A stretch of 64,000 nt of DNA from an uncultured delta proteobacterium (GCA_963811605.1 CAWESA010000011.1:159698-223697); one strand, 5' to 3'. Counted from the stretch's first letter, positions 14,883 to 40,593 are shown. Notes: a model not told the origin generated them from the letters alone. Translations and numbers: made by a program.

Positions 14883-14896
14883 GTTAGCATGCTAAC
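14883..14896. promoter_or_regulatory. perfect 14-bp palindrome GTTAGCATGCTAAC upstream of the Cys-rich protein gene
   Basis: The sequence read directly is self-complementary. It lies about 30 bp upstream of the start at 14927 and could be a regulator-binding site. Confidence 0.25.
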
Positions 14897-14926
14897 TGCC
14901 GCCCGCTGGCAGCACCGCGTCCAGCC

Positions 14927-15859: not shown

Positions 15860-15990
15860 GGCGGCCCGGGACGCAATTTTCTTGCCTGCTGTCGCGTTTT
15901 TCTTGACACGCACACCGGGGCTCGTGGTACCTCGCCCCCGCCAGACCCGGCTCGACTGGACGAGCGGGGCACACCAGAGGGGGGAACCGG

Positions 15991-18550: not shown

Positions 18551-19139
18551 CTACTTCGAGTACTTCACCGAGCAGCCGTACGGCTTGGTCTCGGCCACCG
18601 CCACGGGCTTGCCCGCGGTGATCTCGTCGAGCGCCTCGCCGACGTAGTTGCGCGGGGAGTCGCTCGCGCCGGCGGCGTCATCGTCGATCGCGCCCTGGTA
18701 GACGACCGTGCCCGTCTTGTCGATGACGAACATGTGCGGCGTCGTCCTCGCGCCGTACGCGCCGCCCACGGCGCCCCCGCTGTCATCGAGGATCGGGTAC
18801 TTCATGGCCTGCTCGGCGTGCCAGGCGCGATCCTTGGCCGCGTCCATGTAGCTGGTGCTGTTGACCGCGAGCCACACGACGTCCTTGTCCTTGAAGCGAT
18901 CCGCGAGCGAGCTCATGGTCTTGGCGCGGTAGTGGCGCTGCACGAACGGACAGTCGGGATTCGTCCACTCGAGCACGACGATCTTGCCGCGCAGCTTCGC
19001 GAGGTCGACCTCGCGTCCGTCCTGATCCTTGGCCGTGAACTCCGGGCGCGGGCTGCCCCACGCTCACGGCCGCCCACGATGCGCCCGTCGCGGCAAGAGA
19101 CAGCGCTGCCGCCGCGAGCCACACGCTTCCTCGTGTCAT
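18551..19139 (-). pseudogene. TlpA/ResA-like thioredoxin-family (redoxin) protein with a +1 frameshift
   Basis: Frame A gives signal peptide MTRGSVWLAAAALSLAATGASWAAVSVGQPAP and then goes off-frame. Frame B continues EFTAKDQDGREVDLAKLRGKIVVLEWTNPDCPFVQRHY...HMFVIDKTGTVVYQGAIDDD. The sequence gcgcccgGagttcacggcc carries one extra base, around 19040-19050 on the plus strand. Confidence 0.6.
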
Positions 19140-19987
19140 CTAGGTCTCCTTTCCATCCAGGTCGATGGGAACGCGCAGGCCGTGGCGCGCGCCGTGCTCA
19201 TCGGTCCAGGCCACGACGCTCTCCAGCGTCGATCCCTCCGGGCGCTCGCCCGGCAGGCGCTTGGCGCGAAAGCTGAGCCGCGTCCGGGTTCCGTCGGTCT
19301 CGCTGCTCGCCGACTCGACCGTCAAGCGCCCGGTCGTCGGGTGGGAACCACTCGACGCTCGCGGGTGCCTCGCTTCCAGTCGACGGTCACGGTCACGTCG
19401 CCGACACTGCCGTCCGCCGGCACCGCGCCTCGTGCGTGAGCGTCGCGGGGCCGCCGGCGCCGGCCGCCTCGATCGGGAAGCGTGGAGCCCACTGCGTGAA
19501 GAGCGCGGGATCGGCCGCGGCCCCGTCGGCGCCGACGGTCAAGCTCCAGCGACTTCTTGCCCCGGATGCACAGGCGCTCGCACGCCAGCCAGCCGACCTC
19601 GGCGCGCAGCGCCACCGCGGTCGCGTCGGGGACCGCCGCCGGCGGGGTCACGGTCGCACGCAGGAGCACGACGTCATCGTAGCCGTAGCCGACGACTCCG
19701 CCGGGTTGCTGGAAGCGCCGCGGCACCGGCCAGGCGAGGGGACCGATGCGGTAGCCTTCCGGCGCCGTCCAGCGGACCGAGGTCGGCAGTCCGGAGTCTC
19801 CGGGGTTGAGCCAGTAGACGTGCCAGCCCGGCTGCATGCGAAGCACGACGCCGACATCGAACGGCTTCCCCGGCTCGACACGGGCCGTGCTCGCCACTGC
19901 CGTCGCCTCGACCGGCTGGACGGCCGGCGCCGCGACGGCACGCGCCGCTGCGAACGCGATGATCAATCCCCCGAACAGGCGCCGCAT
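19140..19987 (-). pseudogene. DsbD N-terminal (alpha) domain-like thiol:disulfide interchange protein, reading frame disrupted in its 3' half
   Basis: Signal peptide MRRLFGGLIIAFAAARAVAA. Hallmark PGWHVYWLNPGDSGLPTSVRWTAPEGY and the W..C....C motif (VGWLACERLCI). After about residue 150 the called frame becomes poly-Arg. Protein-like sequence continues in two other frames (LTVGADGAAADPALFTQWAPRFPIEAAG...; VTVTVDWKRG...; ...LESVVAWTDEHGARHGLRVPIDLDGKET ending at 19140). Confidence 0.5.
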
Positions 19988-20020
19988 CGGTCCTGGATCT
20001 GCTGCCTCGTCGATGCCGAC

Positions 20021-21312
20021 TCAACCCCAGACCAGCGGACCACGCAGCGCGACCGTGGGAACCTCGATCTCGCGCAGCCCCTCGCGGGCGAGGACCGCGT
20101 TGGCGGCGAGCCGGCCGCTCACCACGGCCGCCTCCATCAGAGCGGCGGGCACGTCGAGCCGCACGTGGTCACCGGCGAGGAAGAGGTTCGCTATCGCCGT
20201 CCGGGTGGCCGCCCGGTGGGCGTGATCACCCGGCGCCCAGCGCGTGAAGTCGTCGCGGCGCTGGAACTCCTGGTGCCGCACACGCGTCCCCGCCAGCTCG
20301 GGCACCAGTCGGCGCTGCTCGTCGATCAGCCCGCCGGCCACGTCGCCCGCCGCCGCCTCGGACGTCATCGCATAGGCGTGCACCTCCACCACCGCGCCGC
20401 GGGTCCGGCGCGCCCACGCCCGGAAGGGCTCCTGGAAGTGCGAGTAGATCGCGATCGAATCGGTGTAGCGGTAGCCGGACACGGTGGCGAATGCGTCGCG
20501 CACCGGCGCCACCGGGCGATCGAGCCAGAGTCGCAGCACGGCATACGGATCGGCCTCCCCCAGCCGGGCGATGCGATCCGCCAGCTCCGGCGTACCGAGC
20601 TCCGAGGCCGCGGCGAGGGCCCGCACCCCGCGCACGTCGCACGCCACGATGCAGTGGTCGCACGCCACCCGCTCCGTGCGCCGGCCGGCCGGTGCCGTCA
20701 CCACCACGTCGGCTCCCTCCAGTCGCGCGTCCAGCGCCGCCAGCGCCCGTCGAGCGCGATCGGGCCGCCGGCGGCGAGCGCGACGAACAGGGGCATGCCG
20801 CTCGATCCGGGGAGCGCACGCCGGCCGCTGGCCGGCAGGGAGCGGTGCGGCACGCGCGCCCCGGCGCCGGTCGTGGTGCGGCCGAAGCGTTCCGCGACCC
20901 GATCCCCGTAGGGCACGGGGTAGCCGGCCGACTCGATCAGGTCGCCGTCGGCGCCCGCTGCCGCCAGGAGCTGCGCGAGGCTGTAGTACTGGGCGAAGAA
21001 TCCGTGGAAGCCATGCTCCACGGGGAAATCCTCGCCGAGGGCGCGGACCTGCCAGCCGCCGAGCTTGCCGCCCAGCTCGGACCCCTGCTCCACCAGGGTC
21101 ACCTGGAAGCCACGGCCGGCCAGCTCGGAGGCGGCCGCGATGCCCGCCAGCCCGCCTCCGATCACGACCACGCGTCGGGGTGTCGGGACCCGCTCCGGCA
21201 GCCCGGCAGACTCGCCGGGCACGCGGCTCCGGCGCGGCTGGATCGCCGCCAGGCCCCCGGCGGCGACCAGCAGACTCGCGCCCACTCCGCTCAGGAAGCG
21301 CCGGCGGTGCAC
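20021..21312 (-). pseudogene. Tat-exported FAD-dependent oxidoreductase (amine-oxidase/phytoene-desaturase-like fold) with a frameshift
   Basis: N-terminal frame has a Tat-like RRRFLSGVGASLLVAAGG and the Rossmann motif VVVIGGGLAGIAAASELAGRGFQVTLVEQGSELGGK. C-terminal frame has ...ADVVVTAPAG...DSIAIYSHFQEPF...IANLFLAGDHVRLDVPAALMEAAVVSGRLAAN. The two parts are in different frames. The junction is at about 20780-20870. Confidence 0.6.
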
Positions 21313-21321
21313 CCGTCCAGA

Positions 21322-21690
21322 CTACCCGTCGCGGTGCACGCTGTCCGGCGAGAACGCGGGGAGGCAGACGGCGACGTACTCCGCCCCCTCCGCGTCCGGC
21401 GACGAGTAGCGCACCCATTCCCCGGCGCGGGCGATCACCGCCTGTCCGGCATGGACGTCCAGGGTGCCGTCCCGATGCGCCACCCGCAGCATGCCGCGCA
21501 GGACGATCGTGTACTCGTCGAACTCCGGAGTCTGTCCAGGCTCTTCCCATCCCGCGGGGCTGCGCATGTGCGCGATGCTCACCGCGGAGGTGCCGGAATT
21601 GACCCGCCCGACGAACTCGTCGATCGCCTTCGGCTTGTTGCCAGCTGCCACGACCCGGGTCGGCTGATCGACCAGTCTCGGCATGGCCAT
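21322..21690 (-). CDS. cupin-domain protein
   Basis: 122 aa. Cupin-like beta sandwich pattern (YTIVLRGMLRVAHRDGTLDVHAGQAVIARAGEWVRY). Confidence 0.55.
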   Translation of the reverse strand: MAMPRLVDQPTRVVAAGNKPKAIDEFVGRVNSGTSAVSIAHMRSPAGWEEPGQTPEFDEYTIVLRGMLRVAHRDGTLDVHAGQAVIARAGEWVRYSSPDAEGAEYVAVCLPAFSPDSVHRDG

Positions 21691-21737
21691 GAATTTAGTG
21701 TGTTGACAGGCCCTGATTCAACCGGAAGCTTTCCCGC

Positions 21738-22241
21738 ATGACTGGCACGCAGGAGATACGCTCAACGAATGGCACGTGGCAGGACTGGATGCGGAGCCTC
21801 GGCCGGCACACACGCCGCATGCGGGAGTTCCTCGGGCTGACGCAGGAGGAGCTCGGCCGCCGCGCCGGCGTGAGTCAGGGCGCGATCAGCCGGCTCGAGG
21901 CCGGCCGCGGGCTCGCGACGCCACTGCTGGTGGTGGTCAAGATCGCAGGCGCTCTGCAGCAGGCACTGTCGACGCTCGATCAGGCCTTGCTGTCGCCCGA
22001 GGCGAGACGCCTGGTCGAGGAGGGCATTCGCCTGACCCCTCCGGGAGGCGCCGATGCGCGCCGCGACTCGCCGCTCACGAGCGATCCGTCGCTCGAGGAA
22101 TACGTGCAGCTGTTCCATCGCGTTCCCGACAAGCGCCGCGCCACGTTCCTGGCCGTCGTGCGCGCCACGTCGGAGGCAGTGCGGCACCAGGACGTGAGCG
22201 ACGACCCGGTGGAGCGCGAGCCCGAACGAGTCAACCTCTGA
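21738..22241 (+). CDS. XRE-family helix-turn-helix transcriptional regulator
   Basis: HTH_XRE motif LGLTQEELGRRAGVSQGAISRLEAGR. It is divergent from the cupin gene, with a 47-bp intergenic region. Confidence 0.7.
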   Translation: MTGTQEIRSTNGTWQDWMRSLGRHTRRMREFLGLTQEELGRRAGVSQGAISRLEAGRGLATPLLVVVKIAGALQQALSTLDQALLSPEARRLVEEGIRLTPPGGADARRDSPLTSDPSLEEYVQLFHRVPDKRRATFLAVVRATSEAVRHQDVSDDPVEREPERVNL

Positions 22242-22256
22242 CGTGACCAGCGGCCA

Positions 22257-22517
22257 TCAGGCCAGCACCTCGCGCCATCGACTGGGTGCGCGCCGAAGCG
22301 TCGCCGGAAGCACCGCGAACGCCTGGCGACCGCGATGGGCGAAGGCCTTCAGGCGGCCCACGACGCCGAGCCCGCGGCGCTCCTCGGGCCCGATGCGCCC
22401 CATCGCGAAGACGTCGTATGGCCAGGCGCGGACGCAGTCCTCCTTGCCCTCGCAGCGGTTGCGGTCGATCACCGGTAGCATCGCCCCGGCGTCGTGCTTG
22501 CAGTCCGGCTCGCCCAT
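22257..22517 (-). CDS. small hypothetical protein (possible Cys-containing metal-binding motif)
   Basis: 86 aa. Contains CKHDAG...IDRNRCEGKEDCVRAWPYDVF. No family recognised. Confidence 0.3.
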   Translation of the reverse strand: MGEPDCKHDAGAMLPVIDRNRCEGKEDCVRAWPYDVFAMGRIGPEERRGLGVVGRLKAFAHRGRQAFAVLPATLRRAPSRWREVLA

Positions 22518-22518
22518 G

Positions 22519-23337
22519 TCACACCCGCGCCGGGAGTGGCATGAGTCCCGGAGTGTCCACGCTGGTCTCGAACACGGTCGCGCCGCGTTCGGGCTGCTCC
22601 GTGTTGTCGGTGGTCGTCACGTACAGCGTCCGGCCGCCGTCCCCGCCGAAGCAGAGACTGGTCACGAAGCGCGACGGCACGTCGAGCCTCTGATCGAGCG
22701 CACCGGCGGGCGTGAACCGCCCGACGCAGCCCGCGTCCCCCAGCGCTACCCACACGCCCCCCGCCTCGTCGACGGCGAGCCCGTCGGGATTGCCGTGTGG
22801 CACCCGCGCGAGCTGGCGGCGCGCGCCGGTCTCGGCGTCGATCGCCAGCACCTCGGCACCGCTGTAGTTCGACAGGTAGAGCGTGCGGCCGTCGGGGGCG
22901 AAGCCGCAGCCGTTCGGGAAGGCCACCCCGTCGCACACCTGGACGGCCGCACCGCTGGCGTCGACACGCCATAGCTCGCTCGGCACGCGATGCTCGACCT
23001 CCATGGCGCCCGACCGCATCGACCCGACGTAGACGCGGCCCTGCGCGTCGGTGGTCAGGTCGTTGAAACCGAGGGCTCCGTCGACGGTGAGCAGCTGGCG
23101 CGACTGGCCGTCGCGCACGTGGCACAGGTCGCGCCCCGAGACGACGAGTCCGCCGTCGGCGTGCAGCACGAGGCCGCCGACACCCCGCCGTTTCGGGATG
23201 ACGGTCGCGACCTCGGCGCCCGGCGTCCAGTGGTAGACGCCGCCGGCGATGATGTCGCTGAAGTACAGACCGCCCGCCGGGTCCCAGCGCGGCGCCTCCA
23301 GGAACGTGTAGCCCCACACGACCGGGGTCATGGTCAT
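22519..23337 (-). CDS. SMP-30/gluconolactonase/LRE-like (SGL) beta-propeller hydrolase
   Basis: 272 aa. Start MTMTP mapped to 23337. Contains LEAPRWDPAGGLYFSDI, NGCGFAPDGRTLYLSN and PDGLAVDEAGGVWVA, which are typical SGL propeller blades. Confidence 0.75.
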   Translation of the reverse strand: MTMTPVVWGYTFLEAPRWDPAGGLYFSDIIAGGVYHWTPGAEVATVIPKRRGVGGLVLHADGGLVVSGRDLCHVRDGQSRQLLTVDGALGFNDLTTDAQGRVYVGSMRSGAMEVEHRVPSELWRVDASGAAVQVCDGVAFPNGCGFAPDGRTLYLSNYSGAEVLAIDAETGARRQLARVPHGNPDGLAVDEAGGVWVALGDAGCVGRFTPAGALDQRLDVPSRFVTSLCFGGDGGRTLYVTTTDNTEQPERGATVFETSVDTPGLMPLPARV

Positions 23338-24347
23338 GCGTTCGAGCCTGGCTCGACCAGCGCATCGATGGCGCCGAGGTGGGCATCGGGGATGCGCACG
23401 TCCAGCGCACGCAGGGAGTCCTCCAGGTGCCGCATCTCGCGCACCCCGACGATCGCCGACGTCACGGCCGGGTTGCGCAGCACCCAGGCGGTCGCGTAGC
23501 GGGCCAGCGGCGCGTCGACCTCGGCGGCGAGGCGCGCGAGCTCCTCGACGATGTCGAGCCGCCGCGCTCCCGCCGGCGTGCTCATGTCGAAGCGGGGCGC
23601 CACGAAGGCTCCGAACTCGGTCTGGTTGCGTGCGCGAGAGTCCTCGGGAACGGGCTTGCCCTTGCGGTACCGGCCGGCGAGCCAGCCGCCCTCGAGCGGG
23701 CTCCACACGATGGCACCGAATCCGTGCGCCTGGCAGACCGGGAAGATCTCGCGCTCCGCCTCACGCGTGAAGATCGAGTAGGGCGGCTGCGTCGAGACGA
23801 AGCGCTCCAGGTTGCGGCGCTCGCTGATCCAGAGCGACTCGACCATGCGCCAGCCGCCGAAGTGCATGCCGCGCGACTCCGCGAGCGTCCCGGTCGAGAC
23901 TCCGAGGTAGCGGACCTTGCCCTGGTGGACGAGATCGGTGAACGCGCCGAGCGTCTCCTCGAGCGGCGTGTCCTTGTCGTGGCGATGGAGCTGGTAGACG
24001 TCGATCCAGTCGGTGCGCAGGCGGCGGAGACTCTCCTCGACCTGGAGCATGATGTGGCGGCGCGACGTGCCCCGGTCGAGCATGCCGCCTGGCCCTGGCA
24101 TGAAGACCTTGGTGGCGATCACCGCCTCGTCCCGCCGCCCCTCGAGGGCCTTGCCGACGATCTCCTCCGACTCGCCCATGCCGTAGCGATTGGCCGTGTC
24201 GAGGAACGTGACGCCTTCGTCGAGCGCGCGGCGAATGATGCGCGCGCAGTCGTCGTGATCCGTATTGCCCCAGCGGCCGAAGGTCATGGTGCCGAGGCAG
24301 AGCCGCGAGACGCGGAGCCCGCTGTGCCCGAGCCGGACGTACTCCAT
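23334..24347 (-). CDS. aldo/keto reductase
   Basis: MEYVRLGHSGLRVSRLCLGTMTFG...GVTFLDTANRYGMGESEEIVGKAL. Full-length AKR fold. Confidence 0.9.
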   Translation of the reverse strand: MEYVRLGHSGLRVSRLCLGTMTFGRWGNTDHDDCARIIRRALDEGVTFLDTANRYGMGESEEIVGKALEGRRDEAVIATKVFMPGPGGMLDRGTSRRHIMLQVEESLRRLRTDWIDVYQLHRHDKDTPLEETLGAFTDLVHQGKVRYLGVSTGTLAESRGMHFGGWRMVESLWISERRNLERFVSTQPPYSIFTREAEREIFPVCQAHGFGAIVWSPLEGGWLAGRYRKGKPVPEDSRARNQTEFGAFVAPRFDMSTPAGARRLDIVEELARLAAEVDAPLARYATAWVLRNPAVTSAIVGVREMRHLEDSLRALDVRIPDAHLGAIDALVEPGSNA

Positions 24348-24352
24348 GACGC

Positions 24353-24826
24353 CTACGCCGCCAGGGCGCCGTCGATCGCCCGTCGCAGCTCGCGGTCGCC
24401 GGGCGCCACGTTGCTCGGGAAGAAGGCGCGCACCTCACCGTCCTTGCCGACCAGGAACTTGCAGAAGTTCCAGTTCGGCACGTCACCCGAGCGGGTGAGG
24501 AAGGCGTACACCGGCGACTGTCCGGGGCCCGGCTTGGTCTCACCCTTGGCGAAGAGCGGGAAGGCGACGCCGTAGTTGCGCTCGCAGAACGTCTTGATCT
24601 GCTCGGCCGACCCGGGCTCCTGACCGCCGAACTCGTTGCTCGGGAACCCGAGCACCGCGAAGCCTTTCCCGGCCAGCTCGTCGTTGAGCGCCTGCAGGCC
24701 GGCATACTGCGGCGTGAAGCCGCACTCGCTGGCGACGTTGACCACCAGGGTGACCTTGCCGCGGAACTCGCCCAGATCGGCGGCGCTGCCGTCGAGACGC
24801 TGCGTCCTCAGATCGTACAATCCCAT
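24353..24826 (-). CDS. glutathione peroxidase
   Basis: VTLVVNVASECGFTPQY...LGFPSNEFGGQEPG...WNFCKFLV. Start taken at MGLYDL. Confidence 0.9.
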   Translation of the reverse strand: MGLYDLRTQRLDGSAADLGEFRGKVTLVVNVASECGFTPQYAGLQALNDELAGKGFAVLGFPSNEFGGQEPGSAEQIKTFCERNYGVAFPLFAKGETKPGPGQSPVYAFLTRSGDVPNWNFCKFLVGKDGEVRAFFPSNVAPGDRELRRAIDGALAA

Positions 24827-24833
24827 GGCGTTC

Positions 24834-25295
24834 CTATCGCCCGGTTCCTCGGCCTGCGGCAAGCCCCGCGGCCCGTCGCGCCAGCGCCTGGTTCATCGCC
24901 TCGTATGCCGGCAGCAGGGTACGCCGCATCCAGCCGTCGAGCAGCGCCAGCGACAGGCCGCCGAAGTCCTCGCCGTGCAGGAAGCGACACGAGCCCGGGC
25001 CCTCGGGCGCGACGCCGAAGAAGTGCTCGCCGCGAAAGACGACGCCCTTCCAGCGCGCGATCGGGCCCGCCCAGCGGAACTCCTGGCCCGGCAGCACCGC
25101 CAGCATGCGAGCGTCGAGCGGCACGTCACGACGGCCGAGACGGACCGTCATCGCCACCGGGGCGCCGGGAACGAGCCGGGTCTCGACGCGCACCAGAAAG
25201 GGATTCCACTCCGGATAGCGCGGGAAGTCGGTGAGGACGTCCCAGACCGCCTCCGCCGGCGCGTCGACCACCGTCTCGGTGCGGATCGCCCGCAT
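24834..25295 (-). CDS. SRPBCC (START/Bet v1-like, polyketide cyclase/dehydrase family) protein
   Basis: AEAVWDVLTDFPRYPEWNPFLVRVE, characteristic of the SRPBCC N-terminus. Confidence 0.7.
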   Translation of the reverse strand: MRAIRTETVVDAPAEAVWDVLTDFPRYPEWNPFLVRVETRLVPGAPVAMTVRLGRRDVPLDARMLAVLPGQEFRWAGPIARWKGVVFRGEHFFGVAPEGPGSCRFLHGEDFGGLSLALLDGWMRRTLLPAYEAMNQALARRAAGLAAGRGTGR

Positions 25296-25307
25296 CGCGC
25301 CGCGCCG

Positions 25308-26207
25308 TCAGCACATCGCCACGCGCGCAAACGCGCGCAGGGCATCGATGTATTCCGCCCGCGAGTCCCCGGCGACACCGACCGTGAGCCACGTGACGCC
25401 GAGCGCCTCGAGCGCCTGGACGCGGTCGCGAATGCTGGCGGCGTCGCGGGACTCGGGCGGCAGCAGGAGCGCGTAGCAGATGTCGAGGGACCCCTGCCGC
25501 GACACCGCCGCCGCGTGTGCGCGGGCGAACGCCACGCGCGCGGCGAGGTCGTCGAGCGTCTCCATCGCCGGCGTCCGGGTGAACTTCGCCATCGCCGCCG
25601 TGTTCGGAAACGGCACCCAGCCGTCGCCGAGCTCGACGGCGCGGCGGATGGCGCGGCGGCTGTTGCCGCCCACCCAGATGGGCGGATGCGGTCGCTGCAC
25701 CGGCCGGAAGCCCATGCTGTTGCCGATCGCCGTGAAGCCGCGGCCGTCGTAGCGCACGTCGTCTTCCGCCCAGGCGCGCTTCATGGCGCGGATGGCGTCG
25801 TCCGAGACGTCGTCACGCGCCTCGAAGTCGGCGCCGAGCGCCGCGAACTCGCCGCGCAGGTATCCGGCGGCCACGCCCAGCGTCACGCGGCCTCCGGACA
25901 GCACGTCGAGGCTCAGGATCGACTTCGCCGCCAGGAAGGGGTTGCGATACGGCAGCACCAGGATGTGCGTCTGGAGTCGCAGCCTCGTGGTCACGGCGGC
26001 GGCGAACGACAGGGCGACGAACGGATCGAGCGCGTGGTGGCCGCCGCCGTACAGCCAGCGATGGGGCGGGAACGGATGGTCGGTCACGTAGCAGGCGTCG
26101 AAGCCGGCCTCCTCGGCCGCCCGGGCGATCTCGCACACCGCGGCCTGGCTGACGAACTCGTCGGCGCGATCGATACGCTCGGTGGGGAGGGAGACGGAGA
26201 AGCGCAT
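25308..26207 (-). CDS. LLM-class (luciferase-like) F420-dependent oxidoreductase
   Basis: 299 aa. GFDACYVTDHPFPP...LQTHILVLPYRNPFLAAKSILSLDVLSGGRVTLGVAAGY resembles the luciferase-like monooxygenase fold. Confidence 0.8.
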   Translation of the reverse strand: MRFSVSLPTERIDRADEFVSQAAVCEIARAAEEAGFDACYVTDHPFPPHRWLYGGGHHALDPFVALSFAAAVTTRLRLQTHILVLPYRNPFLAAKSILSLDVLSGGRVTLGVAAGYLRGEFAALGADFEARDDVSDDAIRAMKRAWAEDDVRYDGRGFTAIGNSMGFRPVQRPHPPIWVGGNSRRAIRRAVELGDGWVPFPNTAAMAKFTRTPAMETLDDLAARVAFARAHAAAVSRQGSLDICYALLLPPESRDAASIRDRVQALEALGVTWLTVGVAGDSRAEYIDALRAFARVAMC

Positions 26208-26209
26208 GC

Positions 26210-27412
26210 TCAGTTCGGGTTCGGGGCGCGGAAGGTGAAGATCAAGCGCGAGCGGCGCGGGATCCCCTGCACCGCGCTGAGGCTGGTGACGTACTCGTTG
26301 CGCTCCGTGCGACGACGTCCCGGCGCGAGGTCATACGTTCCGAAGAGCGCGGAGCGATTCGGCCGCACCGAGACCAGCTTGAGATCGTCCCAGCGCAGCC
26401 GGATGGTCACCTTCCGCTGGGCGGCGCCGCCTGCCATGCCGACCGATGCCCGGCAGAACACCCGGCCTCCCGTGCAGTCGACGAGGACGCCGGAGCGCAC
26501 CGACTCGACGACGCGGCGGATGTTCCGGACCACCAGCGCCGGCTGATCGAGCTGGAGGTAGTCCGAGCTCCGTCTGGCGATCACGTGCCGCCCGCCTGCC
26601 GCGAGCGTCGCCAGCTCGGCCTGACCCGTGGCCCAGGCGTCCTCGAGGGCAGGCGAGAAGTCCGGCGGCACTCCGGCGGGAAGCTCTTCGGGAAGACCGC
26701 GCGAGAGGACGGCGTACGGGACGCGCCGCAGCGGCGAGCCGGCGGCGGCGGCGAGCATCGACGCCGCGGCGGCCTCGAGGTCGATGGTCTCCAGATCCGG
26801 CACGCCCTCGAGCCCGGCGGTGCTCTGCACGACCTGCTGGTAGATCGACCAGTTCGTCGGCCCGAGGAAGCTCTCGAGCCGTTCCGGCCAGGCGTCCACC
26901 AGGACCAACCCTGCGACCTCGCCGGGGTGGGCGCTGGTGAACAGGCGGGCGAACAATCCTCCCAGCTGATGCCCCGCGAGCACGTAGGGCCCCGGCACCT
27001 CCGCGACCCGCAGGAGCGCGTCGAGGTCGGCGACGATGTCGTCCGCGGTCCGCGGCATCGGCACGGGATCGCTGCGGCCGAGCTGCTGCTGGTCGAAGTA
27101 CGTTCCCGGTCGATCGTAGGTGCACACGCGGGTGAACTTGGCGACCTGAGCGGCCACCGGTACGCCGCGCGCCACGGGCCCCGCCCAGACGCGGCCGTCG
27201 TTGCGGTATCCCGACTCGAGGATCACCGTGGGGCCGCCGTTGCCGTGACACTCGAGGTAGAGACGACGCCCTCCCCCGATGTCGAAGAGCTCCCCGAAGT
27301 CGGCGGCGGAGGCCGCCGGCTCGCCGACCTGGGCGCGCGGCTCGCTGCTGGCGACGCCGATCGACCACACGATGAGCGCAACGGCAAGGCAAGCGCGGGC
27401 GACTCGGTGCAT
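26210..27412 (-). CDS. secreted alpha/beta hydrolase with a C-terminal extension
   Basis: Signal peptide MHRVARACLAVALIVWSIGVASS. Nucleophile-elbow-like GHQLGG (GxSxG position with Q), so the active site is atypical. The hydrolase core is followed by about 110 aa of extra C-terminal sequence. Confidence 0.65.
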   Translation of the reverse strand: MHRVARACLAVALIVWSIGVASSEPRAQVGEPAASAADFGELFDIGGGRRLYLECHGNGGPTVILESGYRNDGRVWAGPVARGVPVAAQVAKFTRVCTYDRPGTYFDQQQLGRSDPVPMPRTADDIVADLDALLRVAEVPGPYVLAGHQLGGLFARLFTSAHPGEVAGLVLVDAWPERLESFLGPTNWSIYQQVVQSTAGLEGVPDLETIDLEAAAASMLAAAAGSPLRRVPYAVLSRGLPEELPAGVPPDFSPALEDAWATGQAELATLAAGGRHVIARRSSDYLQLDQPALVVRNIRRVVESVRSGVLVDCTGGRVFCRASVGMAGGAAQRKVTIRLRWDDLKLVSVRPNRSALFGTYDLAPGRRRTERNEYVTSLSAVQGIPRRSRLIFTFRAPNPN

Positions 27413-27510
27413 GCGGCGTCCACCATTCATCTCCGGCCGCCGTCGCGTCAAGCAACACGGGCGAGCAGACCCCCTGGCGATTGGCAGGCGGCCGGGGCAT
27501 GAGTCCAGGT

Positions 27511-28447
27511 GCGATGCAGGCCGCTCGCGTCCACCGCTTCGGCTCGCCCGACGTCATCGCGATCGAGGACGTTCCTCGACCCGCACCCGGTACGGATGAG
27601 GTCCTCGTGCGCGTGCAGGCCGCCGGCGTCGGCCCGTGGGACGCCTGGATCCGAGCCGGCAGGAGCGTCCTGCCCCAGCCGCTGCCGCTGACTCTCGGCT
27701 CCGACCTCTCCGGCAGCGTGCAGGCCGTCGGCTCGGCGGTGAGGGGCTTCGCGCCGGGGGACCCGGTCTTCGGCGTCACCAATCCCCGCTTCACCGGCGC
27801 CTACGCGGAGTACGCGGTCGCCGTGAGCGGCATGATCGCGCGCCGACCCGCGCACGTGGATGCGGTCGAGGCGGCGGCGGTCCCCGTGGTTGCCGTCACC
27901 GCCTGGCAGATGTTGTTCGAGCGGGCGCGCGTGGGCGCCGGCACGACCGTCCTGGTCCACGGCGGCGGGGGGAGCGTGGGTAGCGATCGCCGTCCAGCTC
28001 GCGCGGCGCGAAGGCGCCAGCGTGATCGCGACGGCGGGTGCCGACGATGTCGACTACGTCAGGGGTCTCGGCGCCGCACTGGTCGTCGACCATCGCGCGG
28101 CACGCTTCGAGGAGGTCACCGGTCCGGTGGACGTCGTCATCGACACCGTCGGGGGCGACGTCCAGCGCCGTTCGTTCTCCGTCCTCGCGCGGGGCGGCGT
28201 GCTGGTCTCGATCGTCTCCGAGCCGGATGCCGGCGAGGCGGCGCGACACGGCGTGCACGCGACGTTCCTGCTCGTCAAGGTCACGACGGCGCACCTGGCA
28301 CGCATCGCCGCGCTGCTCGACGACGGCAGCCTCACGACGCGCATCGGCACGGTCCTGCCCCTGTCCGAGGCGCGGTCGGCACACGAGATGCTCGACGGGA
28401 GCCGTGCACGCCCGCGCGGGAAGATCGTCCTGCGCGCCCGGAGCTGA
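27511..28447 (+). pseudogene. NADPH:quinone oxidoreductase / zinc-type alcohol dehydrogenase (MDR family) with a +1 frameshift
   Basis: N-terminal frame MQAARVHRFGSPDVIAIEDVPRPAPGTDEVLVRVQAAGV...VLVHGGGGSVGS. The rest continues in the +1 frame: IAVQLARREGASVIATAGADDVDYVRGLGA...GKIVLRARS. There is an extra base in ggtagcGatcgcc, at about 27984-27988. Confidence 0.7.
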
Positions 28448-28483
28448 TCGCCCTCCGGGGCGAGCCGGCTCCGCACTGCCACG

Positions 28484-32707: not shown

Positions 32708-33259
32708 CGTGCGCTCCTGGTTCAGATGACGGCGGCCACGTTCATACTCGCCGGGTCGATCGCGGCCAGCACCTGTCCGTTTCAACGATCCCGCCCCTTG
32801 CAGTCGTGTGGTGCTGCAGATGACTCCGGCATAGGCGGTTGTGGCGAGAGGAGCTTCCTGACGAAGCCGAGCAGCTCCGCGGCCGAGCCGAAGCGTGCGG
32901 CGACACCGGAGGCGATGTGCTCGGCGCGGCCGATGAAGAGGTCGCCGCCTGGGGTGCCCGGCGCCCGGAGCTGGATCACGAAGGCACGGTCGGGTGGAAG
33001 CGGCCCGTCCATGTCCACGACCCACGGTGGGTCGGCGCTGCGGTCGTCGGGTGCCATGGTCTTCCCCCTACCGCCCGAGCGACGCCCCGGTCCGTAAAGA
33101 ACGCGAAGAGTTCGCGTAAAATCGAGACTCCTCGGGGGACCTCAGTCGGGGCGAGGGGCAGGCGATGCGGCGGTCACTCGCCGTCGGATCACCGGGGCCT
33201 GTTGCGGCCCGTTGGAGCAAGCCGCCCGACACGGTATCTAGCCGATCACCCGATCGACC

Positions 33260-36159
33260 ATGCCACCGGAGGTCTCGACGTCCCCCCACGTGATCGCCTT
33301 TCCGCCCTTTCGAGCTGGACCTGCGGGCGGGGCTGCTTCGTCGAGGCGCCAGCCCGGTGCCCCTGCGGCCGAAGACCTTCGCCGTCCTGCAGTATCTCGC
33401 GGCGCACCCGGGCGACCTGATCTCGAAGCAGGCCTTGCTCGATGCGGTCTGGGGCGACGTGGCGGTCTCGGAGGACGTCGTCCGCCTGTCGATCGGCGAG
33501 CTGCGGGTGGCACTCGGCGACGACCGCGCCGCGGCCCGCTTCATCGAGACCGTTCCCCGGCGCGGATATCGCTTCACCGCCATCACGGAGACGGCGGGCC
33601 CCCCGCTGGACGGCCCGCCGGCGGCGACCGGCGTGGTGGTCGGCCGCGTGCGCGAGCGGGCCGCACTCGCCGACGCGTTCCGGCTGGCTGCCGCTGGCCG
33701 CCGGCAGCTGATGTTCGTCTCCGGGGAGGCGGGGATCGGGAAGACGACCCTCGTCGACACCGCGGTCGGCGAGCTCCTCCGCGCCTCGGGACCCCGGCCG
33801 CGCGTCGGGCGCGGCCACTGCGTCGAGCAGTACGGCGGGGGCGAGCCGTACCTGCCGATCCTCGAAGCGATCGCCGGCCTCAGTCGCGGTGCGGACGGTC
33901 CGGCGGTCCAGGAATCGCTGGAGCGGCACGCACCCGACTGGTTGCTGCGCGTGCTCGGGCTGCTTCCACCCGGCAGGTCCGCGGCGGCGGCCGGCACGCA
34001 GGAGCACACGCTGCACCGGCTCGCAGCCAGTCTCGACGCCCTCGCCACGGAGACGCCGCTCGTGCTGGTTCTCGAGGACGTGCAGTGGAGCGACTACGCG
34101 ACCCTCGACCTCCTCTCGGTCCTCGTCCAGCGCCGCGAGCCGGCGCGGCTGCAGCTCATCTGCACCCTGCGCCCGGCGGACGCGATCGTGCGCGCGCACC
34201 CGGTCTCACGCATGAAACGCGAGTTGCGGCGGAAGGACCTGTGCCGGGAGATCCTGCTCGGCGGCCTGTCGCCATCGGATGTCGCGAGCTACCTCGCGGC
34301 GCGCTTCGCGCAGCCCGACTTTCCCGACGCGCTGCTGCGCCTGTTCGTCGAACGCAGCGAGGGGAATCCGTTCTTCATGGTGGCGCTCGTCGACCACCTG
34401 CTCGCGGACGGGCTGCTCGTGCAGCGCGACGGACGATGGGAGGTCCAGGGCGACCTCGAGGCGCTCCGCACGGCGATCCCCGAGGGATCGCGTGCAGTCA
34501 TCGAGCCGCAGCTCGAGCGCCTCGGGGACGAGGAGCGTCACCTGCTCGAGGCGGCGAGCGTGGTGGGACTGGAGTTTCCGGCTCACGCCCTCGCCGCGGT
34601 CGCCGGCGACGGCGACCCGGCCGACGTCGAGCGCGTGGAGGCGGTGTGCGAGGCGCTCGTGCGCCGCCAGGAGATCCTGCGCGCGGCGGGCGAGAGCGCG
34701 TGGCCCGACGGCACGGCCGGCGCACGCTACGCCTTCCGGCACGCGCTGTACCGGCAGGTCGTCTACCAGCGGCTGTCGTCCTCGACCCGACGGCGCCTCC
34801 ACCAGGGCATCGGGGAGCGCATGGAGGCAGCATTCGGAGAGCGCATCTCGGAGATCGCGAGCGAGCTGGCGGCGCACTTCGAGCGCAGCGGCGACGTCGA
34901 GCGCGCGGTCCGCCACCACTGCGAGGCAGCGGCCCGCGCGGGGGCGCGGTTCGCCTACCAGGAGACCCGCCTCCACCTCGAGGCGGCGCTCGGTCTCATC
35001 CACGAGCAGCCGGAGACGCTACCCCGCCTGCGCCAGCAGCTCCCGCTGCTCGAGACCCTCGGCACGACCTTGTTCGCCACCCGGGGCTACGGCGACGAGG
35101 GTGCAGCGCAGGCGTTTGCACGCGTCCAGGAGATCGCCGAGCGGCTCGACGGCGCCGAGGCGCGGTTGCAGGCGATGGGGGGTCAGCTGATCGTGCACAC
35201 GATGCGTGCGGAGCTCACGACCGCGCGTGCCCTCGGCGAGGCGATGGTCGTCCTGGCCGAGCAGCTCGGGAAGCCGGCAGAGCTCGCCAGCGCCCACACC
35301 ATGCTGGCTGCGGCGCTGTTCGGCCTCGGCGAGGTCGAGGCGGCGCGACTCCACGCCGAGCGGGGACGGGCGCTGTTCGATCCCGGGGCTCCGCCGCTGC
35401 CGACGAACACCGGCGTGCAGAGCTCCATTCTCGTGGCGTCGGCATGCGGCTATCTCGGCCTCGTCGAGCAGGCATGGGCCATGAACCGCGACGCCCTGGC
35501 GCGTGCCGCGACGCTGGGCACCCCGTTTCATCGTGCCCTCGCGACCAACCTCGCGGCGCAGGTCTGCATGCTCCTCGACGACGCGAGCGGCGCGCACCCG
35601 CTGGCCGAGGAAGCCGAGCAGCTCGCCGCCGCCTACGACCTGGCCGTGTTCCGGCTCACCGCGACCATGGTGCGCGCCTGGTGCGAGGTCGCGCAGGGAC
35701 GCGTTCGGGACGGCCTCCCCCTCCTGCAAGACGCCTTCGACGAATACGGCACGACCGGGCAGCGCTTCGGCACCACCAGCTTCAGCATGATCCTGGCTCG
35801 GTCGCACCTGGCCGGCGACGACCCTGCACGCGCGGCTGCCGTCGCCGACGCCGCCCTGTCCTTCGCCGCCGAGACCGGTGAGCGTGTCTACGAGCCCGAG
35901 CTCCTTCGCTTGAAGGGCGAGTGCCTCCTCGCCAGCCTCCTCGTCCCGCGGCCGCAAGGACGCGACGACATGCTTCGAGCGGGCACTGGCGATCGCCGCC
36001 GACCGCAAGGCCCTGCTCTTCGAGCTCCGGGCCGCACTCAGCCTCCTGCGGCTCGGCGGGCACTCGGTGCGCGCGCGCGTCGTCCGCCTGGTGGACCGGT
36101 TCGCTACCGGGGCCGATTGCCTGGACCTGCGCGCAGCGCGGGCCCTGCTCTTCCGCTAG
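33260..36159 (+). CDS. STAND-type regulator: OmpR/PhoB-type winged-helix DNA-binding domain + P-loop NTPase + TPR (two apparent frameshifts)
   Basis: Winged helix: F(R)PFELDLRAGLLRRGASPVPLRPKTFAVLQYLAAHPGDLISKQALLDAVWGDVAVSEDVVRLSIGELRVALGDD...PRRGYRF. Walker A: VSGEAGIGKTTLVD. Walker B: LVLVLEDVQWSD. Long TPR-like tail. A TGA at 33291 precedes the domain, and the protein-like N-terminus MPPEVSTSPHVIAFPPF is in a different frame (shift near 33300-33315). The true C-terminus (...CFERALAIAADRKALLFELRAALSLLRLGG...LDLRAARALLFR*) is in another frame (shift near 35925-35950). The stop is at 36157-36159. Confidence 0.7.
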
Positions 36160-36333
36160 GCCGGCGCGCCGCGGTGGCGCGTCGAGACGTCGCATGCTCG
36201 CAGTCTCCAAGCGAGCACTGCCGGCTGCGAAGCGCGGCTATTCACTGAGGATTGACACGTTCGGGGACCGTCCACCGTCTCTTCCGGTATCTCGTTCCTC
36301 CGTACACATCGGCACGCCAAGGCATCACGCAGC

Positions 36334-38113
36334 ATGACTCTCGACTCGCGAGGGTCGGCCGGCGCTGCCTCTGCCGCCCGCGCTCGTGACTCCGCCACGC
36401 GGTCGCGGCGATCCGTTCCCGTTTCCCTGCTCCTGTGCGCCATCGCAGGGGCCACGGGATTCGGCCCGTCGCGGGACGCCCTGGCCGATCCCGCGGTCTC
36501 GTCACTCCAGCGCGTGCCGGTATGCGGCGATCAGGACGCCTCGTCGGTACAGCTCAAGTGCGCCGACTTCCTGCCCATCTCCGACATCGAGCTCTTCCGC
36601 GTTCCGGGCCAGGGCCCGGTGGACCTGACCTTCGACTTCGTCTTCGCCGAGGCAGCCGTCCCCAACGAGCTCGGCCTCTTCCGGGTCGACGCGATCGACG
36701 GCAGGATCGGGAACCTCAGTCCCGCCGAGCCGGGGTATCTCGCCGCCGCGCTTGCCCGCACGCAGACCATCTTTGCCTCGGGTTCGGATGCCTTCGTCGG
36801 CGACCGGATGGTCCAGCGTCGACGGCGGCGACCTCCTGGTCTTCCTCATCGTGCACGGCGGCAGCCTCGCGGAGCTGCGGGCGGCGAACCCGACCAACGA
36901 TCCCGCCATGACGCCGGTCGCCTTCTTCTCGCTCACGCGAATCAATCCCGATCCCGGCTCGCGCTACGGCGGCGACCATCTCGTCGGCTTCCAGAGCGCG
37001 TCGTCACCGCTCACCGAGTTCGCCTTCGAGGACACCGGTCTGTTCAGCGACTGGGACTTCGACGACGTCGTCTACACGGTCTCGGCACGCCTCGAGCGCC
37101 CCGCCTGCGACGGCCAGGACGGCGACGACGATGGCGTGGCCGACGTCTGCGACACCTGCCCGGCGGTCGCCAATCCCGATCAGCGCGACAGCGATGGCGA
37201 CCTGGTCGGCGACACGTGCGACAACTGCCTGCGGGTTCCGAACCTGGCGCAGACGGACTCCGACGGCGACGGCCGCGGGGACGCGTGCAGCCTCGAGGTG
37301 TGCGGGGACGGCCGCGACAACGACGGCAACGGCCTCGTCGATGCCGCCGACCCGTTGTGCCCGACCCTGCGGATCGAGAAGCTGGCGCAGCCGCTCAGCG
37401 GCGCCAGGATCGGCGCGACGGTCCGGGTGAAGGGACGGGGCTTCGGCACCACCCGCGGAGCCGTCGAGCTGGGCACGGAGGACGTCTCCGTCGACGGCTG
37501 GCGCGACAGGAAGGTCACCTTCTCGGTGCCGCCGCTGGCCGGCGGCGTCTATCTGGTGCGCGTGCTCCGGGGCGAGGCACGCAGCGAGCACGAGGCTCTG
37601 TTCGTGCCAGGGACGCCCGTCTACCGGAGGAAGGCCACGCTCCGGGCGCTCGCCGACGTGCTCGGCACGACGTCCTGGTGGCCGTACTACGACGGCCTGG
37701 CGCGCCGCGCGCCGGCGCTGGCGAATCCGTTCTGGCTGCACGACTCGCTGGTCTCCGATCCCGGCACCGCGGGCTTCGTGACCTCGGCCATCGCGTCCAT
37801 CGACGCCACGACCTACGGGAGGTCCGGACGGCAGCGCCGCCGCGCGGCCAAGACGTTCAGCGCGTGCGAGCGGCACTACCTCCGCCAGATGCCCGACGAG
37901 GTGCTCGATCGATACCTCGCCTGCGCCGCCTATCCGGGCCCCAAGAAGCGCTTCCGCGCGCTTCCCCCGGACGTGCAGCTGGCCATCCTCAATGCGGGCG
38001 CACCCGCAACCGGCAGATACTGCTTCGCGGGGTCGGCGTACCAGAGCGCGTGTCGCGACGTCCTGCGCGCCGGTGGCATCAGCGACGCCGCTCTCGCCAC
38101 GCTCGGGTTCTGA
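36334..38113 (+). CDS. secreted DUF4114 + thrombospondin type-3-like repeat protein (frameshift near 36805-36815)
   Basis: Frame A: signal peptide, then [23 protein letters not shown]...[12 protein letters not shown]. Frame B continues ...[58 protein letters not shown]...[19 protein letters not shown] (DUF4114-like). Then acidic TSP3-like repeats ([37 protein letters not shown]...[11 protein letters not shown]). Then an IPT/TIG-like segment and a C-terminal domain. Confidence 0.6.
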
Positions 38114-38201
38114 CGCCCGGACGCCGCCAGCCGGAAGCCCTGCGTCTCGGCTCGAAGGCGCCGCCGTCCGAGGCGCCGGACGAGCTGGTCGCGAGCGGCG
38201 G

Positions 38202-38765
38202 CTAGAGGAACGCCCCCGACGGGCTCGCGGGGCATCCCCCCTTCGGCGGGACGCACTTGAACACGAACACGTCGGTGTCCGCGCGATTGCTGACACTCGC
38301 CGGCGCCTTGACGCGGGAGGTGCAGCGGTCGCGCGCGGCCCGCCGCTTGGCCGAGCCCCTGAGCGCGACGTCGAAATCGACGAAGGCGCCGCACGCCGAG
38401 CCGGTCAGACGGGTGGGGGCCTCGAGCGGACAGCGCTTGTTGAGCTTCACGCTCTCGACCGAGGGGGGCGGCGTGCAGCCCGTCACTCCCGAGAGTCCCA
38501 GGCACAGCCGGGCGCGAAAGCGGCAGGTGCCGTTGCAGGAGCCGTCCTGGTCACAGGTCGGATCGCCATCGGTGCAGACGAGGTACTTCGCGTTGGTCAC
38601 CGCGTGCGTGCCCGCCGTGCTGGCGTAGGCGTAGCAGTCGACGAAGGGCGCATCCCCGTCGGGGAGCGGCCCTCCGCCCGGCATGGTGGACGCGCGGCTC
38701 ACCACCGCCGCCGCAACGATCAGACATCCCGCCGCGGCCGGCAGGACGATGGAACGAAGCCACAT
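38202..38765 (-). CDS. secreted cysteine-rich hypothetical protein
   Basis: Signal peptide MWLRSIVLPAAAGCLIVAAAVVSRAST. More than 14 Cys in about 160 mature residues (CTDGDPTCDQDGSCNGTCRFRARLC...). The start codon is uncertain. Confidence 0.45.
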   Translation of the reverse strand: MWLRSIVLPAAAGCLIVAAAVVSRASTMPGGGPLPDGDAPFVDCYAYASTAGTHAVTNAKYLVCTDGDPTCDQDGSCNGTCRFRARLCLGLSGVTGCTPPPSVESVKLNKRCPLEAPTRLTGSACGAFVDFDVALRGSAKRRAARDRCTSRVKAPASVSNRADTDVFVFKCVPPKGGCPASPSGAFL

Positions 38766-38914
38766 CGCGCATCGAGCAGGCAGCTGCATCCGACACCTCC
38801 GAGAAGGCGGGAGTGACCACCGCGCACGGCGTGTACCAAGGCTCACGCCCGCAGGTCAATCAGATCGCGCGACACGAGCAATAGACGCCGCGGGTCGCAG
38901 CATCCTACTCGAGC

Positions 38915-39562
38915 ATGGAGAATCGCGTGCACCCCCACCATCAACGAAGCTCGTCGCGCCGCCGGTTGATCTTCCTCGCGGCCCTTGCCCTCGCCTGCCT
39001 TCCCCGCCTGGCACGCGAGGCTCACGCGCACGACCCCGCTGCGCTGTCCGTCCCCGCCGGTCTCGAGGTACCCGCGGGCAACCGGCTGTTCCTCCTGGGA
39101 CACGCCGCCGGGACGCAGAACTACGTCTGTCTTCCCAGCGCGACTGCTCCCTCCGGATTCGCCTGGACCTTCTTCGCGCCGCAGGCCACCCTGTTCGGCC
39201 CGTTCGGACCCCAGATGATCACCCACTTCCTGAGCCCCAACCCCGACGAGGCTGGCACGCCACGCGCCACCTGGCAGAGCTCCCGGGACAGCAGCGCGGC
39301 CTGGGCCGTGGTGTTCAAGTCGTCCGCGGATCCCGAGTTCGTGGAGCCGGGCGCCGTTCCGTGGCTGCTGCTCGACGTCGTGGGCACCAGGCCGGGACCG
39401 ACGGGTGGCCGTGCGCTCGCCGCCACCACCTACGTCCAGCGCGTCCACACGTCGGGAGGCGTCGCGCCGGCGAGCGGATGCGGCGCGGCCACCGACGTCG
39501 GCGCCAAGACGCTCGTCCCCTACGTCGCCGACTACTACTTCTACCGGCACGGTCTGCGATAG
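38915..39562 (+). CDS. DUF3455-family secreted protein
   Basis: Signal peptide. Family-typical motifs GTQNYVC, AVPWLLLDVVG, YVQRVHTSGGVAPASGCG and PYVADYYFYR. Confidence 0.7.
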   Translation: MENRVHPHHQRSSSRRRLIFLAALALACLPRLAREAHAHDPAALSVPAGLEVPAGNRLFLLGHAAGTQNYVCLPSATAPSGFAWTFFAPQATLFGPFGPQMITHFLSPNPDEAGTPRATWQSSRDSSAAWAVVFKSSADPEFVEPGAVPWLLLDVVGTRPGPTGGRALAATTYVQRVHTSGGVAPASGCGAATDVGAKTLVPYVADYYFYRHGLR

Positions 39563-39698
39563 CCGCGGACACGGCGGGGCGCCGGTCAGCGTCGACGGCG
39601 CCGTCTGGCCGCACGGCGGACGGAGGTTTCCCCGGGCCTCCGCCTCCGCCGTGCGGCCGACGTCGTCACGCGCGCGACGATCTCCCGGGTCCGGGCGG

Positions 39699-40593
39699 TC
39701 ACGCGAGCCCGGTCTGCTCGCGGAAGAACTGGATCACCCGTTGCTCGGCGCGCTTGGTGGGTCCGGCGGGATCGTCGTCCTTCAGGTGGATGGTCAGCAC
39801 CGAGTGGGGAGCGGCACGCGGATCGTGCTGCGCCTGCGCGGGGTCGATCTCGATCGCCTCGAAGCGATCACGCGAAAATGCGCTTGTACGAGTCGAAGCG
39901 GGCATCGGGCACGGCGCGGTCGCCGAAGAAGCGGAGGCCGATCATCGAGAGGTCCTCGTTCTCGAAGCGACGCTTCGCGCAGGCGATCTCGTCCGGGGAG
40001 ACGCCGATCGCCACGCTGCGCCGCGCCCCCAGCGGGAGCGGGAGCGAGGGCTGCGACAGCACCGGCGCCACCACGGCGGGCTCCGTCATCATGGCGAGCG
40101 CGAAGCCGCCGGTGAAACACATGCCGACCGCCCCGACGCCTTTGCCGCCGCACTCGGCATGCGCGCGACGGGCCAGCGCGCGCAGCCAGTCCACGATCGG
40201 ACTCGACTCGTCGGTCGCCCAGGCCTTGAACTCGCGGCTGATGCAGAGTGTTCGGACCAGCGTACCGAGGACGTAGCCGATGCTCACCTCGCGGCCAGGT
40301 TCGCCGAACAAGCTCGGACAGAACGCCGTCATGCCCGCCGCGGCGACCCGGTTGGCGAACCGGATCACGAGCGGGTGCAGCCCCGGCATCTCGTGGATCA
40401 CGATCACCGCGGGGCCGGTCCCCTTGCGATACACGGGCCGCGTCCACGGGCCATCCTGGAACTCGAAGCGCTGGTAGCTCGCCAGCGGATCCGTCCCGGT
40501 CGCTCCGCCCGGCCCGCTCACCGGACCACCTCGCGCCAGGCCAGACGCGGCTGGATCGCGCAGCGGCGGCCGGTACCACGAACCCCGATACAA
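39699..40593 (-). pseudogene. dienelactone hydrolase family protein with a frameshift near its 3' end
   Basis: Main frame ...TGPAVIVIHEMPGLHPLVIRFANRVAAAGMTAFCPSLFG...GKGVGAVGMCFTGGFALAM...DARFDSYKRIFA. The conserved C-terminus (...RDRFEAIEIDPAQAQHDPRAAPHSVLTIHLKDDDPAGPTKRAEQRVIQFFREQ) lies in another frame, ending at 39699. The shift is at about 39880-39905. The N-terminal start is uncertain. Confidence 0.6.

Follow-up and report, generated by a model that had tools for sequence, protein, structure and literature searches.

Seven frame-broken genes in a 21-kb region of a soil bacterial contig: probable long-read consensus errors beside a probably decayed FAD/Rieske oxidoreductase gene

We analysed a 64-kb stretch of DNA from an uncultured delta proteobacterium (CAWESA010000011.1, positions 159698-223697; hereafter the window) in which seven genes, all conserved and located between 19.0 and 39.9 kb, are broken by changes of reading frame. 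They encode a redoxin, a DsbD_N-like protein, a flavin adenine dinucleotide (FAD) oxidoreductase with a twin-arginine translocation (Tat) signal, an MDR quinone oxidoreductase, a winged helix-turn-helix (wHTH) regulator, a DUF4114 protein and a dienelactone hydrolase (DLH) (Table 1). An intact orthologue or homologue is continuous across each break. The lesions comprise nine single-base changes (eight insertions and one deletion), one 2-nt deletion and two large deletions, and span positions 19047-39872. In six of the seven genes the flanking coding sequence is conserved, the homologues are continuous and there is no further defect. An earlier, sequence-only reading had listed the same genes as otherwise intact and interrupted by single-base shifts. 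Comparison with homologues bears out the interruptions in all seven, and the description fits the redoxin, MDR, regulator, DUF4114 and DLH genes. It fails for the FAD gene, where a supposed 1-nt shift at ~20800 proves to be two large deletions with loss of the Rieske centre, and the DsbD_N-like gene, credited with apparently two shifts, has four lesions when aligned to its 282-residue orthologues.

The G+C content is ~71% across the whole window, and at this high G+C content long spurious open reading frames (ORFs) are common, so coding frames must be read from the G+C content of third codon positions (GC3). We combined a GC3 frame plot with a simple seven-state frame model, which together resolve clean coding segments and several switches of frame on the same strand that have no stop codon close by. 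The coding GC3 signal is kept in both halves of the broken genes. Apparent switches at ~4.5, ~10.2, ~14.9 and 48.7-51.7 kb are ordinary gene boundaries within operons; no frame break was found elsewhere in the 64 kb, where Pfam-matched genes have essentially complete domains.

The nearest public genomes are Binatia-like soil metagenome-assembled genomes (MAGs), many of them 'MFD' MAGs (MFD-LR). The latter are Nanopore-only Flye assemblies that received one round of Medaka polishing, and signs of error have been reported in the lower-coverage MAGs of this set (PMC12313526). The closest relatives are 79-84% identical, and no near-identical sequence was found besides the window's own public gene call. 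As orthologue reference we used two short-read contigs, L081 and L082, with MAFFT for alignment, tblastn for frame assignment and Pfam for domains. The protein probes were P0001 (FAD gene), P0122 (MDR), P0208 and P0209 (regulator), P0127 (DUF4114) and P0121 (DLH). A concatenated MDR, DLH and DUF4114 query, for which the word filter favoured long multidomain proteins, gave six matches that served as continuity probes.

Table 1. Genes of the broken region, with the lesions found in them
Feature	Position	Strand	Lesions and domains
TlpA/AhpC-type redoxin	18551..19139	-	+1 at ~19047; Pfam AhpC-TSA/Redoxin on C-terminal piece
DsbD_N-like gene	19140..19987	-	Four small lesions; Pfam DsbD_N on N-terminal piece
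Tat-signal FAD oxidoreductase remnant, inserted Rieske domain	20021..21312	-	Two large deletions
Cupin, HTH, SMP-30/SGL, aldo-keto reductase, glutathione peroxidase, SRPBCC, luciferase-like oxidoreductase, alpha/beta hydrolase	21322..27415		Unbroken
MDR (zinc-type) quinone oxidoreductase	27499..28447	+	+1 at 27985, AGC[G]ATC
1407-residue secreted protein, CEMIP beta-helix domain PF24606	28484..32707	-	Single ORF, no frame break
OmpR-type wHTH / AAA_16 / TPR regulator	33260..36159	+	Two net +1 breaks; Pfam Trans_reg_C, AAA_16
Secreted DUF4114 / TSP3-repeat protein	36334..38113	+	+1 at ~36815, GGTCC[A]GCGTC
Dienelactone hydrolase (DLH)	39699..40521	-	+1 near 3' end, ~39872, TTCG[C]GTGAT

Four of the broken genes, encoding the MDR enzyme, the regulator, the DUF4114 protein and DLH, stand outside the operon described below; five net +1 single-base events are their only defects. 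In the MDR gene, the Pfam domains ADH_N and ADH_zinc_N/ADH_zinc_N_2 fall in successive frames, and the probe crosses the break with its residues 385-558 and 551-708 in different frames. Comparison with the homologue motif GGVGSIAAQLAK locates the extra base at 27985, outside the adjacent G6 run (27967-27972). The regulator is interrupted at 33308-33311 (between CCCTTTC and GAG) and again within ~35932-35952. Its best representative, P0208 (974 amino acids, 62% identical), aligns in three successive frames (33260 onward, 33300-35966 and 35890-36156), as does P0209, and MPPEVSTSPHVIAFPPF joined to ELDLRAGLL agrees with both proteins at every residue. A paralogue of the regulator within the window is continuous across the C-terminal break.

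In the DUF4114 gene the probe (84% identical) changes frame at the break, with residues 6-121 ending at 36816 and residues 122-552 beginning at 36818. Nucleotide alignment with two homologous loci (L083 and L084) contains one 1-nt gap (GGTCC-GCGTC versus GGTCCAGCGTC) and no other lesion. A public 441-residue gene call (P0128; NCBI/ENA, from a 234,396-nt contig) is identical to window positions 36788-38110 and represents a truncated C-terminal piece of the DUF4114 protein that starts at an internal ATG. Because this call is identical to the window, the breaks are present in the public record. A length of 234 kb is typical of contigs in long-read soil MAGs and, the community being complex, points to a long-read assembly; it is from this that we infer the source technology. 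For the DLH gene, GTG at 40521, with GAGGTGG before it, is a good start codon. The frame changes around 39880, between residues 584-779 of its probe (aligned to 40485-39892) and residues 787-838 (aligned to 39869-39714). The homologue motif (LGDRF, followed further on by EID) was used to place the extra base, for which the adjoining T4 run at 39875-39878 is an alternative site.

The other three broken genes belong to one operon, which is intact and syntenic as a whole in L081 and L082, where it encodes an HTH protein, a cupin, the FAD/Rieske oxidoreductase (625 amino acids), the DsbD_N-like protein (282 amino acids) and the redoxin (196 amino acids). In the redoxin gene, the signal peptide and the sequence up to VGQPAP lie in one frame and the sequence from EFTAKDQDG to the stop codon in the next. 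Residues 1-32 of the L082 orthologue align to 19139-19044 and residues 28-196 to 19057-18554, in different frames, and at the break the orthologues have GCCGC-TCCGGAG where the window has CCCGCGCCCGGAG. The DsbD_N-like gene uses three frames by tblastn, and MAFFT alignment to the intact orthologues resolves its lesions as -2 at ~19531, -1 at ~19436, +1 at ~19371 and +1 at ~19322. The -2 and -1 lesions total -3 and the frame is regained after 95 nt; the original frame is thus open for 232 codons, with 32 residues scrambled (window 19436-19531, minus strand). The two lesions may compensate one another or may be paired by chance. Together, the small lesions of the DsbD_N-like and redoxin genes form a mixed spectrum (-2, -1, +1, +1, +1).

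The damage to the FAD gene is of a different scale. An in-frame deletion of 465 nt lies between 20873 and 20874, and a deletion of 121 nt between 20746 and 20747 causes a frameshift and takes out the Rieske Cys/His motifs that supply the [2Fe-2S] ligands. Residues 1-148 of P0001 (625 amino acids) align to 21312-20869 and residues 304-345 to 20868-20743 in the same frame, and residues 383-625 align to 20752-20024 in another; residues 149-303 and 346-382 (the latter containing CTHLGC...CPCH) have no counterpart in the window. The remnant thus retains ~430 codons in two frames. All 120 homologues among the matches listed are 571-653 amino acids long and carry the PF00355 Rieske domain, and the gene at 20021-21312 lacks the CxH...CxxH ligands and the full length of ~625 residues that characterize the CrtU-like FAD/Rieske family. 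Clean alignment, at ~80% amino-acid identity, flanks each deletion. The 121-nt deletion is bounded by imperfect direct repeats, GCGCTCGACGG and GCGCTGGCGG; such short repeats are as expected of natural deletion by slippage. On this alignment evidence the FAD/Rieske gene is probably genuinely degraded, most simply a true pseudogene. Its operon partners may be decaying with it, which would account for the mixed indel spectrum in the DsbD_N-like and redoxin genes, or may lie within the same poorly resolved patch of consensus.

The conserved cluster of HTH_31 regulator, cupin, Tat FAD/Rieske oxidoreductase, DsbD_N-like protein and redoxin occupies 2589-5856 in L081, 2169-5903 in L082 and 18551-22238 in the window. 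The oxidoreductase family is labelled 'isorenieratene synthase / carotenoid phi-ring synthase' by JGI, which may be an over-annotation given the periplasmic redox partners.

In a three-way alignment with L081 and L082, the ratio of non-synonymous to synonymous substitution rates (dN/dS) on the window branch is 0.16 for the FAD gene and 0.18 for the DsbD_N-like gene, compared with 0.16 for the HTH gene and 0.09 for the cupin gene, both intact, a test that has little power against very recent inactivation. The aligned genes contain no in-frame stop codons. With dN/dS not raised and in-frame stops absent, the lesions are either very recent or not biological. Their direction is also skewed: 8 of the 10 small lesions in the window are +1, a proportion unusual among natural small indels (P = 0.012-0.055).

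As a control, the frame-switch detector used for the window was also applied to other high-GC loci. The 80 loci obtained with the 1407-residue central gene as query, none of them syntenic beyond that gene, were likewise used as controls. With loci classed from contig names only (k141 or NODE as short-read; MFD contig_N, tig and ENA contig_N as long-read-style), the detector found 30 breaks where the loci are long-read-style (~150 kb of coding sequence) and none where they are short-read (~64 kb) (P = 2e-5, or 6e-3 without locus L089). In the window it reports three candidates, as it misses closely spaced breaks and breaks close to gene ends. The control breaks have the same bias as the window, 24 of 30 being net +1 (12 of 13 without L089). 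Breaks are also patchy between contigs: L089 (ENA ERZ25039457 contig_81921) has 17 candidates in 16 kb of coding sequence and shredded gene calls, with HMG-CoA reductase split into pieces of 104 and 51 amino acids and DUF72 reduced to a 61-residue call, whereas L088, from a sister assembly, has one candidate only. The large central gene is itself frame-broken in 4 of ~30 MFD loci compared with 1 of ~50 others, and in three of those four the break is a +1 insertion outside a homopolymer.

One of the MFD breaks, GGTCCAG[C]GGCG, has the 9-mer GGTCCAGCG in common with the window site at 36815, so that this 9-mer marks two independent breaks in different genes and contigs (L005 at ~10783-10788 and the window at 36810-36818). 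The shared 9-mer could reflect a k-mer-specific consensus error, or, with two cases, chance. A recurrent AGCG motif at the insertion sites is not significant against background.

Taken together, these observations make it probable, in our judgement, that the locus has a mixed origin, with the isolated +1 insertions being long-read consensus errors and the FAD/Rieske gene being genuinely decayed. We take the isolated insertions to be consensus errors because, among related organisms, such breaks appear only in long-read-style assemblies. Those in the MDR, regulator (two), DUF4114 and DLH genes would be uncorrected errors of a long-read (Nanopore-type) metagenome consensus, and the insertions in the redoxin and DsbD_N-like genes probably have the same origin. 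A consensus one base too long would make a functional gene read as two ORFs. The clustering of the lesions would come from a locally raised error rate, caused by a dip in coverage or by strain microdiversity that confuses read alignment. Collapse of heterogeneous haplotypes in a long-read consensus, in which nearby variants misalign reads and produce indel errors and truncated ORFs, has been described (PMC8445201), and this documented mechanism fits indel errors that occur in patches and independently of homopolymers. The FAD/Rieske gene, by contrast, would be truly degraded, having lost 465 nt and 121 nt, the latter as expected of slippage between the direct repeats, and the DsbD_N-like and redoxin genes, as its operon partners, may be decaying alongside it.

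Several features of the locus weigh against this account. The insertions do not behave like classic Nanopore errors: a run of at least three bases lies within 3 nt of two of the nine single-base sites, against a background of 18%, none of the nine lies in a G/C run of at least four (the DLH base could alternatively sit in the T4 run), and the MDR base falls outside its neighbouring G6. An association with homopolymers is thereby rejected, and the statement of the sequence-only reading that several changes fall in G/C runs is weak, as the lesions show no enrichment there. At least two of the inserted bases, at 27985 and 19371, do not copy a neighbour, and others are ambiguous in this respect. 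All 11 frame-changing lesions are confined to 20.8 of the 64 kb (P = 1.5e-4), with four inside 210 nt (P = 7e-5) and none in the 53% of the region that intact genes occupy (P = 2e-4 per event, 5e-3 per gene). The interleaved intact genes at 21322..27415 are an internal control, by which the lesions are gene-specific. Lesions number ~0.5 per kb in the region, more than in most of the control loci other than L089, and the long-read class of those loci is itself read from contig names. Thus, a simple uniform error model is contradicted by the clustering within 21 kb, the sparing of intact genes and the lack of homopolymer association. Half of the small lesions, moreover, share an operon with the FAD gene and its large deletions, which a pure error model makes a coincidence unless structural heterogeneity at the locus caused both. 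The strongest objection is that a gene-specific, multi-hit pattern needs no further assumptions if the genes are real pseudogenes.

That all of the lesions are genuine is the alternative to which these points lead. Seven accessory genes in 21 kb would have been recently inactivated by +1 insertions and deletions, owing to locally relaxed selection or to a burst of mutation at the locus, with the earlier-hit FAD/Rieske, DsbD_N-like and regulator genes gathering several lesions each. This would explain why lesions are gene-specific and multi-hit and spare interleaved genes, why they are not bound to homopolymers, why the operon partners of the unmistakably deleted FAD gene are also struck, and why every broken gene has a dispensable accessory function. 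We nevertheless regard it as rather unlikely. It demands 7 broken genes of ~19 in the region against 0 of ~30 in the flanks, an extreme pseudogene density for a free-living bacterium, and its 8:2 ratio of insertions to deletions (at the P value given above) matches the bias of breaks in long-read-style assemblies. The lack of nonsense codons and of a raised dN/dS also counts against it, as do the four genes outside the operon, with their five net +1 events and nothing else. The specific picture of a Binatia-like soil bacterium with a very recent inactivation of seven genes over 21 kb, composed of almost nothing except +1 changes and two deletions, we hold to be unlikely. Real lesions would make this a pseudogene cluster of unusual density and youth, and the stretch would point to a localized, insertion-biased mutational process or to coordinated relaxation of selection.

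The opposite extreme, in which both large deletions are artefacts too and a mixed-strain or mis-joined consensus at a heterogeneous locus conceals seven genes that are intact in the organism, seems to us improbable. The densest cluster of small lesions (19.0-19.5 kb) does lie near the large deletions (20.7-20.9 kb), as one messy patch of consensus would, and collapsing alleles of differing internal length creates frameshifts (PMC8445201). However, the sequence bordering each deletion aligns cleanly (~80% amino-acid identity), the 465-nt loss leaves the reading frame unchanged, and the 121-nt loss between imperfect direct repeats has the signature of a natural deletion. We also know of no consensus polisher that deletes hundreds of bases. 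Programmed ribosomal frameshifting or recoding, needed for expression of the genes, can be discounted almost entirely. The breaks are almost without exception net +1, and the frames that follow them are open and retain coding character, as recoding would require; yet, for every gene, orthologues and homologues read through the corresponding site in one frame, so that no shift site is conserved, which excludes this explanation. In addition, no motif is common to the sites, one gene would need four shifts within 210 nt, and seven unrelated genes would all require recoding.

We therefore retain the mixed account. The sequence-only reading had preferred uncorrected assembly errors for all of the breaks; this agrees with our results for the isolated insertions, given the +1 bias shared with long-read-style controls, the lack of breaks in short-read loci and the absence of signs of relaxed selection or of nonsense codons, and does not extend to the FAD/Rieske gene. 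It had also proposed comparison with orthologous loci, and these are not split at the same points.

Several other genes of the window deserve description. Among the unbroken genes interleaved with the lesions, Pfam coverage is nearly full (SGL 3-245 of 246, AKR 1-290 of 291, GSHPx 1-107 of 108 and Polyketide_cyc2 1-141 of 142), and the cupin is 90% identical to that of L082 in a single frame. The 1407-residue protein has 178 related loci, the best being 84% identical over residues 20-1405. Its gene has a G+C content of 65-68%, below that of its surroundings, and its relatives, at 40-84% identity, occur in Binatia, Acidobacteriota, Thermodesulfobacteriota, Thiocapsa, Methylotetracoccus and others. 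A small ferredoxin-like ORF on the minus strand (22260-22520, beginning MLPVIDRNRCEGKEDCVRAWPYDVF) has no Pfam match; it has Trp in place of the last Cys of C-x5-C-x3-C-P and no second cluster motif in any frame, and may be another degraded gene or a divergent family. Outside the broken region, three secreted Cys-rich repeat proteins are encoded on the plus strand (14888-15856, 15907-18462 and 56938-60312). The second contains five disintegrin-like repeats (PF00200), and the third combines DUF4215 repeats with Vgb_lyase-like and CarboxypepD_reg domains. Opposite the Cys-rich repeats, and caused by them, lies a long shadow ORF of high GC3 (16677-18011, on the other strand), by which the frame model was misled.

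For users of this genome, the consequence is that at least seven genes in the window, and by extension others on the 234-kb contig, are mis-annotated as truncated or split, as illustrated by the 441-residue call for a DUF4114 protein of ~590 amino acids. The warning of the sequence-only reading that the breaks affect how every ORF here is interpreted is well founded, and frames have to be read with such breaks in mind. Analyses of gene content, pathways and pseudogenes in the MAG need frame-aware handling or re-polishing. The pattern also offers a simple diagnostic for high-GC, long-read-style soil MAG contigs, in which breaks are mostly net +1, are patchy between contigs and, at the few sites that are pinned to the base, lie outside homopolymers.

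Compared with known systems, the isolated lesions resemble long-read indel errors in that single-base indels split conserved genes into adjacent ORFs, with a truncated call already public, and in that related long-read-style contigs contain +1-biased breaks where short-read contigs contain none. They differ from such errors in lying outside long homopolymers and in being clustered and gene-specific, and the source technology is one that we infer. The operon resembles bacterial pseudogenes and operon decay: compared with its syntenic orthologues the FAD/Rieske gene is short of 465 and 121 nt, and with them of its cofactor ligands, and two downstream partners are disrupted with a mixed indel spectrum. 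The diversity of lesions that marks pseudogenes is seen only in the FAD/Rieske gene and in part in the DsbD_N-like gene, not in the MDR, regulator, DUF4114 and DLH genes. Unlike typical pseudogenes, those of the window are free of nonsense mutations and have no raised dN/dS, and the genes outside the operon have only net +1 changes. A density of 7 in ~19 genes is far above that usual in free-living bacteria. Programmed +1 frameshifting of the prfB type is similar in needing a net +1 shift into an open downstream frame, and differs in that here no shift is conserved, no motif is shared, the genes are unrelated and one gene would require several shifts. No new kind of system is needed, as both components of the mixed account, long-read indel errors and ordinary gene decay, are well-known categories.

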